From a virus (taxonomy: Duplodnaviria; Heunggongvirae; Uroviricota; Caudoviricetes): a DNA stretch of 35,693 bases. Shown piece after piece: positions 23,731 to 31,887 of the stretch. Location of the stretch: positions 1 through 35,693 of the IMG/VR virus record IMGVR_UViG_3300015610_000614. One strand, written 5' to 3'. The translations under genes and the position numbers were made by a program. A model generated the notes under the pieces. It was given only the letters and a program-made list of their open reading frames with translations, was not told the DNA's origin and searched no databases. Position 1 is the stretch's first letter; every line of letters starts with the position of its first letter.

Positions 23731-24051
23731 ATGCAATACGATAAAGAAACCACCGATAAGCTAGTTTCTATGTATAATGGCGGATCCTCAGCTGAGGAAA
23801 TCGCCGAGGCACTAAATCTATCAACTCGCTCTGTTATCGGTAAACTCTCCAGCTTAGGTATTTACAAAAAGAAGCAATACCTAAATAAGCTCGGGCAGCC
23901 TCCAGTTAAAAAAGAAGAGTATGTTGCTCGAATCGCAGATTTGCTCGAAGCACCACTAGATACTCTAGATTCGCTTGAAAAAGCAAATAAGCGAGTGCTC
24001 CAGATGATCGAAGAAGCACTACAAGAGCTCCGGGCTCTTAAAGATGCTTGA
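23731..24051 (+). CDS. D3: T5 D3/A2-family DNA-binding protein
   Basis: EEIAEALNLSTRSVIGKLSSLGIYKKK HTH-like motif; follows D2-like gene as in T5. Confidence 0.7.
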   Translation: MQYDKETTDKLVSMYNGGSSAEEIAEALNLSTRSVIGKLSSLGIYKKKQYLNKLGQPPVKKEEYVARIADLLEAPLDTLDSLEKANKRVLQMIEEALQELRALKDA

Positions 24052-24133: not shown

Positions 24134-25052
24134 TGTACGTACGATCCTAAATTGCAGCATTTGTACGCAGTACGCAACTCGGGAGTATTTACACACTATA
24201 CGCGGCTCGGGGCTTGCCGCAGCTTAGGATCGGAAAACTGGCCTTGATTTTCGGATTTGCACTGAGTATAATTTTGGCGCTGAAAACAGACTTGAAAAAT
24301 TAAGGTACTAATGAGTAAAACAGACTAATCGATCCTAATCTGCGGCGACTAACTCGAATCGTATAAAAGTATAGATGTAGAAAAGCCCTGATACTTGAGC
24401 ATCTCACTGAGAGCACAGAGGTATCAGGGCTTTGAGGGTGGAGTTCACCAGCCGCTCTTTGAAAAGAATGTCCAAATCTACACTAGTGTTACGGTGATCA
24501 GCCTTTCCACTAGATACCGCCTTTCTTGGTATTTTATCATCCGCGTTTTCCTAAGTTGCGGAATCCCTTCGTCCCTAAGCTGTCAACGGTCGTGTAGTAC
24601 TAACGCACGACGGAATCAAGGTAGGTCCAGGCCCGGTGGTCTCGCCGACCGGTAAAGCGTCCATTATTGCCTGAGGAGCAGGCAGTCCAAGTCACCTCAG
24701 TTGAACTCCTAGGTATGAGTGCTTTGGTCGCGGAGACTTAGGATCTCGGCGATTAGAGCTAAAACGTATACCCCAAGGGAAGCACGGGTCTGCGCTGGGT
24801 AGTCGCTCCGCGACGTGCTTGCGGCGGCTTAGGGTTTCGAGTGTTATATTTAGGCTGGCCACTCATCATCAGTACGCTCCAGCTTAGGGTATTCTGCGGC
24901 TACCTAATCCCTAGGTAATACCAGTCCAGGCCCTAATCATCAATTTATAAATAAATTATAGCTTGTTTTGGGTTGCTTTGCAAGCTCGAATTTCTTTAAC
25001 TGTCAGATGCTTAACTACAATATGCTCAAGATCCTCAACTGTAGTAGTTGGC

Positions 25053-25286
25053 TTAATCGCCACATACGCTGCCGTCAAATCCAATAATACACTCAGCAAC
25101 AAAGCGATCGAGCATAAAATGATCCTGAGCTGCAATATCCTCGCCAGCTTGAAACTTATCACAGAGCTTTACCACAGCATCAGAATCCATGCTAGGGGTA
25201 AGAATGCTTTCTAGCATTTCATCTGTGCTATTAGCTACAAGAGTTTTAACGCAGGTCAGCAAAGTTTGTACAGTTACGTTTGCCAT
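25053..25286 (-). CDS. hypothetical pre-early-type protein
   Basis: 77 aa ORF in leftward block. Confidence 0.6.
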   Translation of the reverse strand: MANVTVQTLLTCVKTLVANSTDEMLESILTPSMDSDAVVKLCDKFQAGEDIAAQDHFMLDRFVAECIIGFDGSVCGD

Positions 25287-25300
25287 TTTGGTATGTTACG

Positions 25301-25447
25301 TTAAAAAAAGTTGGGCGAATCGGTTTTCTTGGAAAACTTCCTCGCTGTGGTAGTATCGGTAGAATTTTCGGACAGTTCGAGGTCGTGAAATTCTTTCAAG
25401 AGATCGCGATAGTCGCCAAAGTATTTTGCCGCTTCAAGTGCTGTCAT
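25301..25447 (-). CDS. small hypothetical protein
   Basis: 48 aa MTALEAAKYFGDYRDLLKEF... behind TTGCTT-17-TAAAAT promoter. Confidence 0.55.
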   Translation of the reverse strand: MTALEAAKYFGDYRDLLKEFHDLELSENSTDTTTARKFSKKTDSPNFF

Positions 25448-25899
25448 AATTTGTGTAAGAAAAGATTATTTTACTTGAAAAATTCCCAAAAAGCAAGAAT
25501 AAATTTTTATCGGTTTTAACCGAATTAATCTTGATTTCCGACGTAAGATAATATTATAAAGCGTTAAGCTATGTTTGCCAAGGCTGAAATTACGTATGTT
25601 TTACACTATGGTAACCTGACACATTGTAACTTTTGCACTTGCTTGCAGGTCGTGTCGTAACGATGTAGTTTTTGCACTTGCCGGTTTTCCACTGGCGCGG
25701 CAGCGCGCTTGGGGAGGTGTGAAAGCGCCTCCCTCTATTTTATCATGGACGCGCGCACCATGTCAACGATTTTTTGCAATACCCACACGAATTAGTCGGA
25801 AATCTATTGACGTGGCCCCAAAATTTGTGGTAAAATTTTGGCGCAAAATTGTTGCGCAAAAACAACAAAGGCCCCGAAGGGCCTGGTCTTGATTGGTAT

Positions 25900-26106
25900 T
25901 TATTCGATAATTGTATATTCCAGTTTTACCTTGACGGGTTTAACGGAATAGAACGAATAGTTATCGGGTACGCTAGGGTCAATACCTTCTTTTTCCATGT
26001 ACCCTTCTAGGTCCATAATTGCTTCCGCAATTGTTTCACCTTCGCCGATATATTTATGGAAGCTACCAGTGTATTCACTAAAATTGGTATAAACTGCGAT
26101 AAACAT
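25900..26106 (-). CDS. hypothetical protein
   Basis: 68 aa, RBS GGAGA, terminator GGCCC-GAAG-GGCC downstream. Confidence 0.75.
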   Translation of the reverse strand: MFIAVYTNFSEYTGSFHKYIGEGETIAEAIMDLEGYMEKEGIDPSVPDNYSFYSVKPVKVKLEYTIIE

Positions 26107-26206
26107 ATATTATTCTCCCTTTCGGTAAAACTTAACTTCGTGGGTTGTTTTGAACTCGCTACATTCATAGAATGTAGCTTCGTCCGGAGTATACACAGTT
26201 GTCATA

Positions 26207-26572
26207 TTACTCGTCGCTTTGCAGCGTCACACTGTATGCGAGTTCATCAGAGATGCGTCCCTCGCGCTGCAAGTCGTCGACGAAGCACGTAAAGGCCATG
26301 CGCCTTGCTGGCTTGTCGGTGCGATACGCCGGCACTTCGGCGCATAGTTCAGTCCATTGTTCAGCGAATGCTTCGTTTACTTCGTCTTCGTCGCTGAACT
26401 CGAATTCTTCGGGCTCTTTCTCTTCTTCCGGGAAAAGCTCAATACCATTTTTGTGCACGAAGTCTTCGCATTCATCCTCGCTCAGATAGCTCAGTAGGTC
26501 GCTAGCGAGTTGATTTGCATCTAGCAGGCCCTCGTCCAGCATTTCGGCCAGCCTGTAGCGGTTCTTTCCCAT
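26207..26572 (-). CDS. highly acidic protein (possible DNA mimic)
   Basis: 34 of 121 residues D/E by hand count; RBS AAGGTGA. Confidence 0.75.
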   Translation of the reverse strand: MGKNRYRLAEMLDEGLLDANQLASDLLSYLSEDECEDFVHKNGIELFPEEEKEPEEFEFSDEDEVNEAFAEQWTELCAEVPAYRTDKPARRMAFTCFVDDLQREGRISDELAYSVTLQSDE

Positions 26573-26759
26573 TTATCACCTTTCATTGCATGATGCCATC
26601 ATAGCACACGTCCAGGCCCAAAACAAGAACCCGACAAAATTAGTAGGAAAAGCCATTGACATGGCTGCCAAAATTATGGTATAATTTTGGCGCACTTTTG
26701 TTGCTTTTAAGCAACAAAAAACCCCGCAAATTGCGGGGTTTTCTTGACTTACGACTGGC

Positions 26760-27092
26760 TTAGTTGTAGGCGATAAGCTCGGCGATTTCCTCAGCGCGCC
26801 GCATCAGATATTCGGCATCCGGCTCCCAGTCATCATCACGAAGGCGGACCGGGGTGCGCACGCCCAAATAAAAGCGATTCAGAGCATGATACTCGCCGAC
26901 CTTGCGGCGGTCCTTCTTCTCATCCTCGCTGCACACGGATACCGAGAATTGGCCCATGCTTTGACCGGAGCGGATCAGGGTAACGGTCACACCCTCGACG
27001 CGAACGATAACGCCGCCATCACGGATAAACTGCGCACGCATTGCCTTACGGTCGGCCTTTTGGATCGCATCGAGCTTGGAATTGGAAGACAT
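26760..27092 (-). CDS. hypothetical protein
   Basis: 110 aa, RBS AAAGG, terminator CCCCGC-AAATT-GCGGGG downstream. Confidence 0.75.
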   Translation of the reverse strand: MSSNSKLDAIQKADRKAMRAQFIRDGGVIVRVEGVTVTLIRSGQSMGQFSVSVCSEDEKKDRRKVGEYHALNRFYLGVRTPVRLRDDDWEPDAEYLMRRAEEIAELIAYN

Positions 27093-27182
27093 ACTAAACC
27101 TTTCAAAATTTGTTTAAGAGTGCCGGTCTTTCCCGGCTGCCAGACTATATTTTAAACCAGAGTCTCGGTTTGCCTATAGGGG

Positions 27183-27548
27183 TTAACCCTCGATCGGCTT
27201 GGAAGTAGCGATGGCTTCCCAGATCGTTTGCAGGGCCTTCTTCGTCGCCTTCGTAAGACTTTCCGTGTCGGGTTCAGACAGGCGGAGGACCGCGCCAATA
27301 GCGGTCGCCAGCTCGGCCTTCGGCCGGGGAGCTTCGCCAGCCTTCGTCTTGTATTCCTTCTTTTGGTAGACGCCCTCGCGGGTGAGCTTGGCGATCACCG
27401 AGCGGGTGGACTTGCCGAGCTTCAGGGCCAGAGCCTCCACAGTTTCAGCCGTCGGGGCTGCCTTGTACGCGCCGACCATTTCCACGGTCTGAGCTTCGGT
27501 GTAGTTCACGGTCTTTTCAGTCTTTGCGGTCATTTTCGTTCCCTTCAA
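27183..27548 (-). CDS. A2: T5 A2-family DNA-binding protein, copy 1
   Basis: EALALKLGKSTRSVIAKLTREGVYQKKEY resembles T5 A2/D3; true start may be the MTAKTEK Met. Confidence 0.7.
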   Translation of the reverse strand: MKGTKMTAKTEKTVNYTEAQTVEMVGAYKAAPTAETVEALALKLGKSTRSVIAKLTREGVYQKKEYKTKAGEAPRPKAELATAIGAVLRLSEPDTESLTKATKKALQTIWEAIATSKPIEG

Positions 27549-27740
27549 TGTTACGGGCTAACGCAAGCCCTAGGTTTAGTGTTTGTCGGTTCTTTTAACG
27601 TCTAAACCGGCAAGAGACATTTTAAACTAGACTCTTAAATTTTACAAGAACTTTTTTTAAACCATTTTTGCCTCAAACCTCCAGCAGGCCGTCTATTTCA
27701 TTCGATTAGGTTTCTATTTTATTCCCGTTTTCTTTGCTTG

Positions 27741-27869
27741 TCAAGAGAATTTTTCAGGATCTGTGAAACTTGCAGTGACCAACAGAAACGATAGTATAGC
27801 ACCTCTTTCGCCAGCGAGCAGCCATCCTAGGGTGACTGCTGTAGCAATTAGCAGAACTGATGATTTCAT
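27741..27869 (-). CDS. small membrane peptide
   Basis: 42 aa MKSSVLLIATAVTLGWLL... with RBS AAGGAG. Confidence 0.55.
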   Translation of the reverse strand: MKSSVLLIATAVTLGWLLAGERGAILSFLLVTASFTDPEKFS

Positions 27870-28125
27870 TTCGTTCTCCTTCGTCATTGCATGATGCCAT
27901 CATAACACGGATTCACACCGCCCAGGTAACCCGACAAAATTAGTGGGAAATCTATTGACACGGCTGCCAAAATTGTGATACAATTTTGGCGCGCATGTGT
28001 TGTAAAAATACAACACATTTTTTGGCGCGCCCGCGCTTAAATTATAGCACGCGCGCCAGGCGGATGCAATAGGGATAAACCCTAATTGCCTGGACGCAAA
28101 AAAGCCGGGAATTTCCCGGCTTGTC

Positions 28126-28482
28126 TTATTTGTCACAGTCTGCCCGATAAATCCGACCTACATTATAACCCCATCCCCTGAGTGCATCCCGCAGGCCCTT
28201 AGCGCATCGTTGAAATGTAGGCCCGTGATCTTTAGCCCTAGGGTGATTTTCGACAACCCAAGCATGGCAGAGTTCATGCGCTACCAGTGTCCGAAAACTA
28301 CCCCGCACGGAACCATAACGGGATTCTATAAAATGTCGGTCTTCTTTGTCCCAGTACAGCGCGCAAGCCTCCTCGCCTTCAGTCTTGAGAGTACGGGTAA
28401 CAATCCGCACAGTCACCGGCCGCGTAAGCCCTAGCAACAGAATGCACGTTTGAACGAATCGACGATCCGAAGTTTTCAGCAT
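28126..28482 (-). CDS. SprT-like zinc metalloprotease
   Basis: LVAHELCHAW (HExxH) and KDHGPTFQR. Confidence 0.82.
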   Translation of the reverse strand: MLKTSDRRFVQTCILLLGLTRPVTVRIVTRTLKTEGEEACALYWDKEDRHFIESRYGSVRGSFRTLVAHELCHAWVVENHPRAKDHGPTFQRCAKGLRDALRGWGYNVGRIYRADCDK

Positions 28483-28540
28483 TTCATAAGCTCCTGAAAG
28501 CCTTGATTATAGGCCCCTAGGGGCCTACAGTCAAGAGCTT

Positions 28541-29239
28541 TTATCGGGGTGCAAAATGATCCTTTACTTGAAATTCCCGCCAATTATACGGCTTGACATT
28601 ATCACGCCAGCCCCTGATTTTGAGAATATGCCGCAAAATAGGCAGTTCAAAATCTTGCGCATCCTCCAGCGCAGTATGAGGCTCGGTTTTGAATTCACCC
28701 GCCAGATAACCCGCCACGACTTCAGCATTGGTTTGCATGGTCATATTACGGGATTCGGTGGGAGCATTAAAGCAGTGATTTTCAATCACGAATTGCTTAA
28801 ATTGCTTTTTGTGGCAAATATTGCCCACAGCCGCTTGCCACAGGCAAAATTCATTCTTAAACATGGAAAGATCAATTCCAGTTTTTGCGCATTTGTCCTT
28901 ATCAAATGCGAGATTGTATGCCGTAACGTCGGGATTATATTGTGCGATAGCCTTCGCAATCCAGCGATTAATAGCCGGAACGCTGGCCATCATACGCGAA
29001 CCCTCGTTCAGCATATTTTGATACATGCCGCGTCGCTTTTCTGCGGCTTGCTTGCCCCAGAATCCCGTATCCTTGGGATTATAAAAAAGCTCTTTGGTAT
29101 CGAAATGATCCTTGACCATAACGCCCATTTTCGCGGCAATATTGCCTTGACGGTCACAGATCACAATTCCCAGATCCGCCACAGTGTCCTCAATCGTGGT
29201 TTCAGTGTCGATAATCGCAAAATATTGTTTTCGTGCCAT
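28541..29239 (-). CDS. DEDDh 3'-5' exonuclease
   Basis: IIDTETT (ExoI), AYNLAFDK (ExoII), HTALEDA (ExoIII). Confidence 0.9.
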   Translation of the reverse strand: MARKQYFAIIDTETTIEDTVADLGIVICDRQGNIAAKMGVMVKDHFDTKELFYNPKDTGFWGKQAAEKRRGMYQNMLNEGSRMMASVPAINRWIAKAIAQYNPDVTAYNLAFDKDKCAKTGIDLSMFKNEFCLWQAAVGNICHKKQFKQFVIENHCFNAPTESRNMTMQTNAEVVAGYLAGEFKTEPHTALEDAQDFELPILRHILKIRGWRDNVKPYNWREFQVKDHFAPR

Positions 29240-29312
29240 CGAGTAAGTCCCCTAGTTAGAACATTGCAGAAGGTTTTATTATGGGGCATTTCCGCCCCTG
29301 TGTCAAGGCTTT

Positions 29313-29816
29313 TTAATGACCTTGTTTCGACGGCACATAGACGCCGCGCATATTGAAATTATCACAGACCGTGCGCAGATACTGCACGTTATCCTCGTAA
29401 AACTTACGATCCTCAATTGCAGCAAATTGTTTGAGGCCAAACAGTTTCGACAAGCCCAAAACCTTGAGCAACCCGCCCGAGCGGGTATCATCAGCAGCAC
29501 GGCTAATAATATGATCCGGCTGGCCCAAAACGTCGCGGATAAAATCGCGGTCGGGCTGATGCAAAACCCGCGCCGTGGCAATGACGACAAAACAGGTTTC
29601 ATCCTTCAAATCAGCCTTATATTTTTCGGCCAGCGGCAGCAGGGAATCATCCATTGCCCGATGCTCATTTTCGCGCCAGTATTGCAGATCAATCCGCTCG
29701 ATACCATCAGTGCCCTTTTGCGTGCGGTAGCGATGCAGCGAGCAAACAATCGTGCCATCCATATCATAAACACGGATTTTAGAGAGCTTGCGCGGCAGGG
29801 TTGCGACGTTGGACAT
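29313..29816 (-). CDS. HAD-superfamily phosphatase (Pnk/Pnkp phosphatase-like)
   Basis: VYDMDGTIV (DxD), IATAR, KVLG, FYEDN. Confidence 0.82.
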   Translation of the reverse strand: MSNVATLPRKLSKIRVYDMDGTIVCSLHRYRTQKGTDGIERIDLQYWRENEHRAMDDSLLPLAEKYKADLKDETCFVVIATARVLHQPDRDFIRDVLGQPDHIISRAADDTRSGGLLKVLGLSKLFGLKQFAAIEDRKFYEDNVQYLRTVCDNFNMRGVYVPSKQGH

Positions 29817-30163
29817 TTTAGAGCCTTTCGGTGTTTGTGAGCCTTAATTCTAGCCCAGTTTTTGCCTTTTGCAAAGCCCCTACAATTTATGGGGTCTTGC
29901 CTGGTTCGTGTCAATCGACAGAAACTAGATAATAGCACGTTGACCAGGCCCAACAATAGGGGGAAACACCTATTGACAGCCTTGCGCGGGGTGTGGTAAA
30001 ATTTTGGCGCACTTTTGTTGCTTTTTTGTCACATACCACAGACCGGGTGTTTTGTCAAATACCAGAGTAAAATAGTAGGAAAAGCCATTGACACGGCCCA
30101 AAATTATATGCTATAATTTTGGCGCCTACCTGTTGCTAAAAAGCAACAGGTATTTATGTGGTA

Positions 30164-30421
30164 TTAAACTTGCTTGACAATCTTTGAATAATGGAGGTTG
30201 TTAGTTTCAATCTCCGCTTCAATAATCGCCCTTTTAGCCTGCTCTATATTGCCGAATTTCTGTTCACGCAGTATAGCAGAAACCAGCATTTGATAGTCGT
30301 TTTGCTCCATCCAATTTGCGACAAGCGCGGCCTTATAGTAAATATTACCGTTAGCTTCTTTGCGTTCGATAATATTATATTCAGGCTTCTTAGACTTAGG
30401 CTTGCGAGAAAACGGCCACAT
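30164..30421 (-). CDS. hypothetical protein
   Basis: 85 aa, in leftward run. Confidence 0.65.
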   Translation of the reverse strand: MWPFSRKPKSKKPEYNIIERKEANGNIYYKAALVANWMEQNDYQMLVSAILREQKFGNIEQAKRAIIEAEIETNNLHYSKIVKQV

Positions 30422-30423
30422 AT

Positions 30424-30627
30424 TTAATCCTCGAGAGTTTGAAAATATTCCTCGCCGACAATATGCAGCTCATCCTCAAAACCTTCTTCCAGCTCTTCGG
30501 GATAATCTGCATCAAAATCAGCGACGCCGCGATTATACGTATTTTGCAATTCTCGCACGTCTTTGATATGGAGATTCTTGCAATCACGCCGCAGGGTTTC
30601 AGCGCAGTCATGAATAATCATGTTCAA
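30424..30627 (-). CDS. small acidic protein
   Basis: 67 aa with D/E-rich C-terminal half. Confidence 0.65.
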   Translation of the reverse strand: MNMIIHDCAETLRRDCKNLHIKDVRELQNTYNRGVADFDADYPEELEEGFEDELHIVGEEYFQTLED

Positions 30628-30663
30628 TCACCTTGATGATAATGATAGGGGAGAATGCCAGAA

Positions 30664-30873
30664 TTACCACGGCAACAGTTTGAAGATACGGCATAATCCA
30701 TACACCGAGGAAAGGCCAAACAGAATAGCGAATCTGTCCAATTTCAGCATATCGGGCAATCCGCCTAGTAGGAAGGCAATTAGCCCGATTCTAACGAAAC
30801 CCGTAGCACATGCCCAGGCCCCGACTAGAAAACAGATTTGCTGGATTTTAGCGATTTTGCTTTTCGTATCCAT
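30664..30873 (-). CDS. small two-TM membrane protein
   Basis: MDTKSKIAK start preferred; two hydrophobic segments. Confidence 0.55.
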   Translation of the reverse strand: MDTKSKIAKIQQICFLVGAWACATGFVRIGLIAFLLGGLPDMLKLDRFAILFGLSSVYGLCRIFKLLPW

Positions 30874-31051
30874 CAGCAGTAGCGCCCGCAATGTATTTGA
30901 TATTTTCCCAGCGTTTCGCTTGACGCTGGGCGGCAAAAGCACGCCACAGCGAACGAATATCAGTAAAAATCATCTGGATAAAAACCCAAATTGCATAGCA
31001 CATAACACCCAGCAAAAGAGTGCCAGAAACGATGCTAAAAATCTTATCCAT
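30848..31051 (-). CDS. small membrane protein
   Basis: N-terminal TM, basic tail, RBS AAGG. Confidence 0.7.
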   Translation of the reverse strand: MDKIFSIVSGTLLLGVMCYAIWVFIQMIFTDIRSLWRAFAAQRQAKRWENIKYIAGATADGYEKQNR

Positions 31052-31066
31052 GATTCAGCCTTTCAA

Positions 31067-31321
31067 TTAAAAGCCAATCTTACCAGATTTGAACATGGAA
31101 CGAAAGCTAAAACCCTTTGCCTTTGCGGGTTTTGCTTGGTGACGTTTGACAGCCGGGGCATGAAAATGCCGACCCACGTTAGCGGGTTCGCCAGCTTGGG
31201 CGGCCATGCTCATTTGAACGTTAGCGGTGTATTCGTTGTGAATGCGCATTTTGCATTCCCTCCTGTGTTGCTGTGAATATAGTATAGCCCAGGCCAACAG
31301 TACGCACATTGGGAGAAACAC
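31067..31321 (-). CDS. small basic hypothetical protein (start uncertain)
   Basis: Internal Met with GGAGG RBS (MRIHNEY...) probably the true start. Confidence 0.55.
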   Translation of the reverse strand: MFLPMCVLLAWAILYSQQHRRECKMRIHNEYTANVQMSMAAQAGEPANVGRHFHAPAVKRHQAKPAKAKGFSFRSMFKSGKIGF

Positions 31322-31483
31322 CTATTGACGTGGCCCGAAATTATGTGGTATAATTTCGGCGCAGTTTGTTGTATTTATACAACAGTGGCGGGCGCCTATT
31401 TCATTATACCATACCGCCTGGTACGCGCAATAAAAAACCCTGCACATTGCAGGGTTTTTGTAAAGGGCTTGACAGCCCTTGAA

Positions 31484-31819
31484 TCAGCCTTCCAGCTTTG
31501 CGATGATCTTTTGCAGGCCGGTCTTGTTGGCCTTGGCCATGCTATCGGCTTCCGCTTCGCTCAGGCCGCACAGCTCGGCCAGCTTAGTAGCGAGCTCCTC
31601 CTTGGTCACAGGGGCTTCGCCCTTCTTCGTGGTGTATTCCTTCTTCTTGTACACGCCCTCGCGCGTAAGCTTGGCAACAATGCTGCGCGCGCTCTTGCCC
31701 AGCGCCTCGGCCAGTGCGGCCACGGTCTCTGCCGTAGGGGCGGCGGTATATTGTTCAATCATGCCAGCGGTCTGCTCGGCGGTGTAGTTCGCAGCCTTGG
31801 TGGTGGTCTTGGTCGTCAT
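31484..31819 (-). CDS. A2: T5 A2-family DNA-binding protein, copy 2
   Basis: AALAEALGKSARSIVAKLTREGVYKKKEY; aligns along its length with 27183..27548. Confidence 0.72.
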   Translation of the reverse strand: MTTKTTTKAANYTAEQTAGMIEQYTAAPTAETVAALAEALGKSARSIVAKLTREGVYKKKEYTTKKGEAPVTKEELATKLAELCGLSEAEADSMAKANKTGLQKIIAKLEG

Positions 31820-31887
31820 ATTTCAATCTCCTGGAAAAGCTAAGGTGTTTGGGATTCTTGAAGCGCTGAATCCCTAAGCGCAGAAAC

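Follow-up and report, generated by a model that had tools for sequence, protein, structure and literature searches.

Conserved promoter–hairpin modules facing backward at the operon junctions of a leftward gene block in T5-like siphophages

We analysed the first 35.7 kb (35,693 nucleotides, hereafter the window) of the 99.7-kb IMG/VR virus record IMGVR_UViG_3300015610_000614, in which a block of leftward genes is punctuated at its operon junctions by short rightward modules, each built around a near-consensus sigma-70-type promoter. The block spans 24–32.6 kb, has a G+C content of 47% against 40.6% overall, and encodes, all leftward, a HAD-type phosphatase, a DEDD-like exonuclease, a SprT-like protease, small membrane proteins and two paralogous helix-turn-helix (HTH) proteins; as an initial annotation of this DNA had stated, every block gene supported by homology points leftward. 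The remaining genome is that of a T5-like siphophage, with a 2639-amino-acid (aa) tape measure protein, an SbcC-like protein, Pol A, DnaB and more than 20 tRNAs. Among cultured phages, those closest to it in the portal protein are Vibrio T5-like phages, with ~40% identity. No DNA similarity to the block was found in cultured phages, and protein searches with the terminase region and the exonuclease returned distant matches only. At the Rfam gathering score, tRNAs were the only matches in the window, and at the E-value threshold the block gave only sub-threshold terminator look-alikes. The block resembles pre-early genes, and its operons are probably the first to be expressed; from its size and position, as in T5, it may correspond to the terminal repeat, the DNA that enters first. 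Its gene starts carry strong Shine-Dalgarno sites and TTGACA/TATAAT-type promoters, on which grounds a Bacteroidota-type promoter (TAnnTTTG) was rejected.

The pattern TTGACR-18 bp-TAnAAT-TTYGGCGC, first noticed in the initial annotation, matches the plus strand of the window six times, at 25807, 26656, 27955, 29973, 30088 and 31325, and not once in shuffled sequences (0 expected). Throughout the whole 99.7-kb genome the module motif is restricted to 24267–31384 and always lies on the plus strand. The six promoters reach 10–12 of the 12 sigma-70 consensus positions, and all of them carry the TG of an extended −10 box, while most minus-strand promoter matches of good quality have 17-bp spacers, in line with what had been reported for the sense promoters. 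A proposed seventh site was also recovered, with TATAATTTTGGCGC at 24267 and TTGATT at a 17-bp spacing. Downstream, TGTTGY-N6-RCAACA occurs five times, each copy beginning 5–6 nt past GGCGC (0.01 expected), so that both the number and the fixed geometry of these elements stand. One module, or the tandem pair 29973/30088, is found per junction between leftward operons, between the end of the upstream operon and the next leftward promoter, with which it is placed back to back. A 21-mer at 26583 and 27884 and an upstream box at 26629 and 27929 are exact matches, and the description of each module as a divergent unit with a leftward promoter is supported. The features are the following:

24244–24280, plus strand: seventh, weaker module (TTGATT, 17 bp, TATAAT, TTTGGCGC), with no −10 palindrome, facing ~650 nt without a supported gene.
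25807–25844, plus strand: module 1 promoter (TTGACG, 18 bp, TAAAAT, TTTGGCGC); −10 palindrome at 25818–25841, its left arm changed to match TAAAAT.
25850–25884, plus strand: module 1 post-start hairpin, with TGTTG...CAACA at 25850–25867 and a GC hairpin at 25869–25884 that scores as terminator-like on both strands.
26583–26650, minus strand: leftward promoter region backing module 2, with TGnTATGAT, the 21-mer in common with the module 3 region, and the common upstream box.
26656–26693, plus strand: module 2 promoter, 12/12 consensus with TG; −10 palindrome at 26668–26690.
26696–26752, plus strand: module 2 hairpin, then a strong GC hairpin and U tract; predicted RNA ~55–60 nt, minimum free energy −25.8 kcal/mol, z −6.5.
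27884–27950, minus strand: leftward promoter region backing module 3, with the same 21-mer and upstream box as the module 2 region.
27955–27992, plus strand: module 3 promoter, with TACAAT; palindrome at 27967–27989 with a compensating ATTGT.
27995–28026, plus strand: module 3 hairpin of 10 bp, then T6, terminator-like; predicted RNA ~33 nt.
28020, plus strand: second TTTTGGCGC near module 3; a convergent leftward promoter lies at ~28040–28070.
29973–30010, plus strand: module 4 promoter, with no −10 palindrome and only half a TGTTG hairpin; in tandem, 115 nt upstream of module 5.
30088–30125, plus strand: module 5 promoter, 12/12 consensus; 25-nt palindrome at 30098–30122.
30127–30162, plus strand: module 5 hairpin of 11 bp, then a T-rich tail, terminator-like; predicted RNA ~35 nt.
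31325–31362, plus strand: module 6 promoter; palindrome at 31335–31359 with the paired change CCGAAA/TTTCGG.
31367–31462, plus strand: module 6 hairpin (31367–31384), then a strong hairpin and U tract ending at ~31460; predicted RNA ~100 nt.
~31400–31430, minus strand: convergent leftward promoter near module 6.

The motif search in related genomes that had been suggested shows that the cassette is widespread. The exact module pattern is present in at least 120 IMG/VR contigs, and the copies within each contig all lie on one strand; removal of identical copies left 210 sites with full flanks, on which the clade results below are based unless another sample is given. The positions between the two hexamers, left free by the pattern, themselves show strong conservation (A C G G c C C A A A A T T A T R T G n), with the T and G of the extended −10 element TRTGn at 97% and 96%. 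When sites were anchored only on the −10 box plus GGCGC, a TTGACA-like hexamer was found at 18 bp in 298 of 344 and at 17 bp in 32; conversely, anchoring on the −35 box plus the palindrome, and not on TTTGGCGC, placed this element after 144 of 145 sites. Diverged modules, found in loci fetched via the exonuclease gene, keep GGCGC 0–5 nt after the −10 box, and their −10 region is different and still palindromic. Overall, the 38-bp module core is nearly invariant although the core genes of these phages are just 66–73% identical in DNA and ~60% in protein, which indicates an element under strong selection. Searching the literature for the motif strings gave no relevant result. Outside viral records, the motif was seen solely on short contigs of metagenome-assembled genomes from unrelated phyla (loci L184–L194); with only 11 such small contigs of mixed taxa, probably mis-binned phage DNA, we rejected the motif as a mimic of host promoters or as a clue to the host.

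An inverted repeat lies over the −10 box, with the layout CC-(A/T-rich)-loop-(A/T-rich)-GG. The initial annotation had placed the −10 box at the centre of this repeat; the co-variation of its arms, of 10–11 bp, holds, but the box forms the 3′ arm plus the edge of the loop rather than the centre. We counted 10–11 consecutive Watson-Crick pairs in 139 sites, against a maximum of 7 after shuffling of the spacer; 198 sites reach 8 or more of 11 pairs. Changes in the −10 box are compensated in the left arm (TAAAAT/ATTTTA, TACAAT/ATTGTA and TTTCGG/CCGAAA, the last in 9 of 10 sites), and the double change claimed for the 31325 copy, CCGAAATT/AATTTCGG, is real; more distant relatives have the arms CCAATTTTAT/ATAAAATTGG and CCAATTATA/TATAATTGG. 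The palindrome exists in two registers, of 25 nt or 23 nt, and the spacing of its half-sites thus differs by 2 bp. Together, the two registers and the compensatory changes favour a folded hairpin over a rigid dimer site. Substitutions show no consistent preference for wobble pairs, and the folding species could be a DNA cruciform, the rightward read-through RNA or the leftward RNA. At 26583–26603 and 27884–27904, the leftward −10 box TATGAT likewise belongs to a small palindrome (ATGAT-GGC-ATCAT); a −10 box embedded in a hairpin is thus not peculiar to the backward promoters.

A second hairpin follows the expected transcription start. A strong inverted repeat (score ≥ 8) is present in 176 of the 210 sites and in none after shuffling; in 150 sites it begins within 15 nt of GGCGC, mostly 5–7 nt past its first G, i.e. 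2–5 nt after the expected start. The stems measure 8–24 bp with 21 mismatches in total and a mean G+C of 36%, and the loops are mostly of 3–4 nt. Note that a wobble test of which strand folds had too few mismatches to work with in this hairpin (7 vs 3). The stems fall into about ten sequence families, TGTTG...CAACA among them, usually with 2–4 families per phage and independently of the neighbouring gene; within the TGTTG family the flanks differ yet stay complementary. The "6-N6-6 operator" of the initial annotation, although its geometry holds in five window copies, therefore seems to be a lineage-specific form of this variable hairpin, and resembles the top of a hairpin more than a fixed site. 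In TGTTG-type modules (27984–27992 and 28020–28028 in the window; loci L075 and L032/L197), TTTTGGCGC is directly repeated on either side of the hairpin, an arrangement that looks like a target-site duplication. Where a convergent leftward promoter follows a TGTTG-type hairpin, two promoters stand face to face, with the hairpin as their common first transcribed element.

Rightward transcription would in many copies end close to its start. On the promoter strand, a terminator-like hairpin with a T tract is found within ~110 nt in 107 of the 210 sites, compared with 14 in the upstream control and 8 after shuffling; terminator-like sites on the gene strand near modules are fewer (76). The median predicted RNA is ~35 nt long. 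Clear terminators close off copies 2, 3, 5 and 6 of the window, for which RNAs of ~33–100 nt are predicted. Thus, the module design seems to contain rightward transcription instead of sending it into genes. Long antisense shut-off of the pre-early genes, one of the roles first proposed, becomes unlikely with a same-strand terminator this close in 51% of the copies. The accompanying statement that each promoter runs into the next gene with no open reading frame (ORF) to drive is right as to the absence of a gene, but the reach is short, terminators or U-tailed hairpins intervening in copies 2, 3, 5 and 6.

To assess orientation, we counted ORFs only if they have divergent protein homologues in other loci. 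By this measure, 215 of 244 modules (~88%) face a convergent gene, and 167 of 244 have opposite-strand genes on either side. Another 16 modules appear to face a gene in sense orientation, but nearly all of these genes are shadow frames, of the exonuclease among others; the single real one is terS, on the right-hand border of the block. A gene-strand promoter formed from the left arm of the palindrome is found at ~23% of sites only. Synteny is kept in relatives, with the par, exo, had and par genes leftward and rightward modules between them, and in every locus that has terS, terL or portal matches these lie downstream of every module and are co-oriented with it. The rightward ORFs behind the window promoters (266, 174, 218 and 172 aa) were rejected as genes, being shadow frames of real leftward genes. 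These four unusually long ORFs, at 28556–29356, 29316–29840, 30620–31276 and 31325–31843 (plus strand), overlap the leftward genes, and their full length is not kept in relatives.

From their sequence and context, we read the modules as neither mRNA promoters nor drivers of long antisense RNA. The reading we prefer, to which we give about an even chance of being correct, is that they are self-terminating backward transcription units at operon junctions, read by the host sigma-70 polymerase and yielding hairpin RNAs. Host sigma-70 RNA polymerase would recognize the near-consensus promoter (TTGACA, 18-bp spacer, TRTGn, TATAAT and the invariant TTTGGCGC start region), the transcript would begin in GGCGC and fold within 2–5 nt into a perfect hairpin of 8–13 bp, and its release at this hairpin or at the next terminator would leave a hairpin RNA of ~35–100 nt. 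The role we favour is that of a junction device, in which a polymerase bound tightly and head-on would act together with the two hairpins to insulate adjacent pre-early operons; the module may also tune the divergent promoter, and the short hairpin RNA, made in abundance, would have a second function or be a by-product. The AT-rich −10 hairpin would form in some single-stranded state, either a DNA cruciform or a read-through RNA, and may make the promoter sensitive to supercoiling. Polymerase trapping and a role in DNA entry, both put forward in the initial annotation, are possible.

Several observations weigh against this scheme. About half of the copies have no canonical same-strand terminator nearby, and a longer antisense RNA is possible for some of them. 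The near-absence of G-U pairs in the stems suits DNA-level palindromes equally well, and a sigma-70 promoter would not require the invariance of CGC after the palindrome. A single phage uses the same hairpin type at more than one position, which hints at, or at least leaves room for, sequence-specific recognition. Finally, recognition by sigma-70 is presumed from the consensus and from the Shine-Dalgarno-rich, TTGACA/TATAAT-type gene starts of the block.

Sequence-specific recognition is the basis of the first alternative, the operator-controlled antisense circuit of the initial annotation, in which three par/GcrA-like HTH paralogues would bind the palindromes, switch the backward promoters and shut down the pre-early genes. 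The three proteins encoded in the window are the following:

23731–24051, plus strand: third paralogue, on the left-hand border of the block, above the Pfam GcrA cut-off (30.5 bits) and 40% identical to the two leftward HTH paralogues.
27183–27533, minus strand: par1, one of the three paralogues, a small, putatively DNA-binding two-HTH protein and candidate regulator.
31484–31819, minus strand: par2, 61% identical to par1.

Each block of the clade encodes 2–5 such small HTH paralogues, which form a continuum on clustering without discrete groups, and the counterpart of the third paralogue in relatives is always located upstream of all modules and co-oriented with them. The circuit would also account for the TGTTGY/RCAACA core that the window hairpins have in common at a fixed distance, and for the recurrence of identical hairpin types at several promoters per phage and in many phages. 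In about a quarter of the modules, those of loci L098, L100 and L092 among them, a TAGGnG...CnCCTA palindrome abuts the −35 box, between the divergent promoters, and could be a common regulator site of both. We nevertheless consider such a circuit unlikely. A dedicated operator does not fit about ten unrelated hairpin families, stems perfect over 8–13 bp whose flanks vary and remain complementary, with loops of mostly 3–4 nt, or the 2-bp offset between the two registers of the −10 palindrome. Furthermore, the predicted structure of par, two three-helix bundles (predicted local distance difference test score 87) with a weakly GcrA-like N-domain, suggests two unlike HTH bundles per chain and no obvious symmetric dimer, and the terminators restrict the antisense reach.

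A second alternative, which we hold to be no more probable than the operator circuit, takes the −10 hairpin as the gate itself. The modules would be "dummy" promoters gated by supercoiling or structure, their −10 box hidden in a cruciform, in the first-entering DNA of a T5-like clade without an A1 gene, and would time the hand-over from pre-early expression. This hand-over would concern entry of the remaining DNA, shut-off, or very abundant hairpin RNAs with a decoy role against a host nuclease or a defence sensor, and the dummy promoters might possibly coincide with strand-specific nicks at G/GCGC. The hairpin promoters of the N4 virion polymerase and engineered cruciform-regulated promoters offer a likeness, with a small hairpin and a 3-nt loop immediately upstream of the start; the modules differ in combining a complete sigma-70 −35 box with an extended −10 box. 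A search for a T7-like phage RNA polymerase gene detected none, and is uninformative since its control also gave no match.

Less probable still is conditional read-through of the kind known from lambda PR′/Q or HK022 put, whereby the modules would be constitutive promoters and a phage antitermination factor would extend their short terminated RNA, silencing the pre-early genes and feeding the late ones. The position of every unit upstream of, and co-directional with, terS, terL and portal agrees with this, but terS has a promoter of its own, and six or seven dispersed units exceed the needs of a late switch; lambda PR′, with its 6S RNA and Q antitermination, differs from the modules, which are many, dispersed and each set inside an opposite-strand block. 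GGCGC aside, the initial transcribed region varies, with no −10-like pause element conserved in it; no pause-inducing element was found, nor any Q-like match among the block proteins scanned.

A DNA-level element, either a strand-specific nick site with hairpins or a cruciform pair for stopping DNA entry, for packaging or for duplication of the terminal repeat, is in our view similarly improbable. In its favour, GGCGC is invariant and always on one strand, and the perfect Watson-Crick pairing of the stems is well suited to hairpins of DNA. T5 nicks have the consensus R/GCGCRGG (PMC3517423), which contains the RGCGC that the modules carry strand-specifically, and at one site, the nick of the terminal repeat, a perfect palindrome directly follows. 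As far as can be judged, the block matches a T5-type terminal repeat in size and position, and resembles the left one of T5 (the first-step-transfer DNA, with its nick and injection-stop region at 7.9%) in being ~8–9 kb of palindrome-rich, leftward early genes beside structural genes; no consensus backward promoters were found in the leftward unit of the T5 repeat. However, T5 nick sites have a long consensus of their own, extending ~40 nt upstream, and the modules share neither this nor the RGG, RGCGC being followed by A/C-A-A, while four of the five T5 nick sites have no hairpin after them. We therefore set aside the analogy with T5-type nick sites, the likeness being limited to RGCGC and one palindrome. 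Nor would a DNA-level element account for a perfect −35 box that stands at a fixed distance from TRTGn and the −10 box, and elsewhere in the genome GGCGC shows no special strand avoidance, its strand asymmetry reflecting a general G-rich bias of the sense strand.

The closest described kind of element is the promoter-early stem-loop (PeSL) cassette of T4-type phages (Arbiol et al, 2010, PMC2839356; Comeau et al, 2014, PMC4122927), like the modules a repeated, strongly conserved sigma-70-type promoter with a stem-loop between small early genes of a plastic region. The PeSL stem-loop may overlap the −10 box or sit just after it, and these stem-loops act as terminators (PMC2839356, PMC4122927). 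The differences are that PeSLs are co-oriented with the genes they drive and belong to T4-type myophages, whereas the modules belong to T5-like siphophages, oppose their flanking genes with nothing to express, and have a hairpin over the −10 box, another past the start, and an invariant GGCGC start box. That the modules are PeSL-like mobile regulatory cassettes, kept mainly as homology patches for shuffling small early genes, is compatible with the other readings and fits their variable presence or absence at syntenic junctions, the independence of hairpin family from neighbouring gene and the many contigs that break at a module, but as the main explanation we hold it to be as improbable as read-through or a DNA-level element, given a fixed backward orientation and a core whose near-invariance points to direct selection on function.

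To our knowledge, the two-step DNA entry of T5-type phages and their pre-early expression and shut-off are still largely unexplained. The modules are short enough to be made as synthetic DNA and should be recognisable by an E. coli-type polymerase, which makes in vitro study feasible without culturing the phage. Should the short RNAs or the bound polymerase have a role, the modules would represent a new type of phage regulatory cassette, and would also provide a ready-made part combining a self-terminating promoter and an insulator.

Three further regions of the record deserve mention. The ~650 nt directly behind the seventh promoter (24280–24950) hold no homology-supported gene and no Rfam match, and no look-alike was found among the fetched loci; the words CTTAGG, CCTAAG and CCTAGG recur there, and the stretch is a candidate for a large non-coding RNA or an end-of-repeat region. 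The ends of the record are classed by IMG/VR as inverted terminal repeats; the contig ends lie in the tRNA/early region, away from the block, and this class probably reflects a feature of the assembly. At 25553–25766, a leftward TTGACA-18-TAAAAT promoter with its own spacer palindrome faces a leader of ~290 nt in which GCAAGTGCAAAA words recur and whose opposite strand has a terminator-like hairpin at 25711–25734; in locus L085, a similar TTTGCACTTG...CCACTGGCGCG stretch lies behind a module-type promoter.

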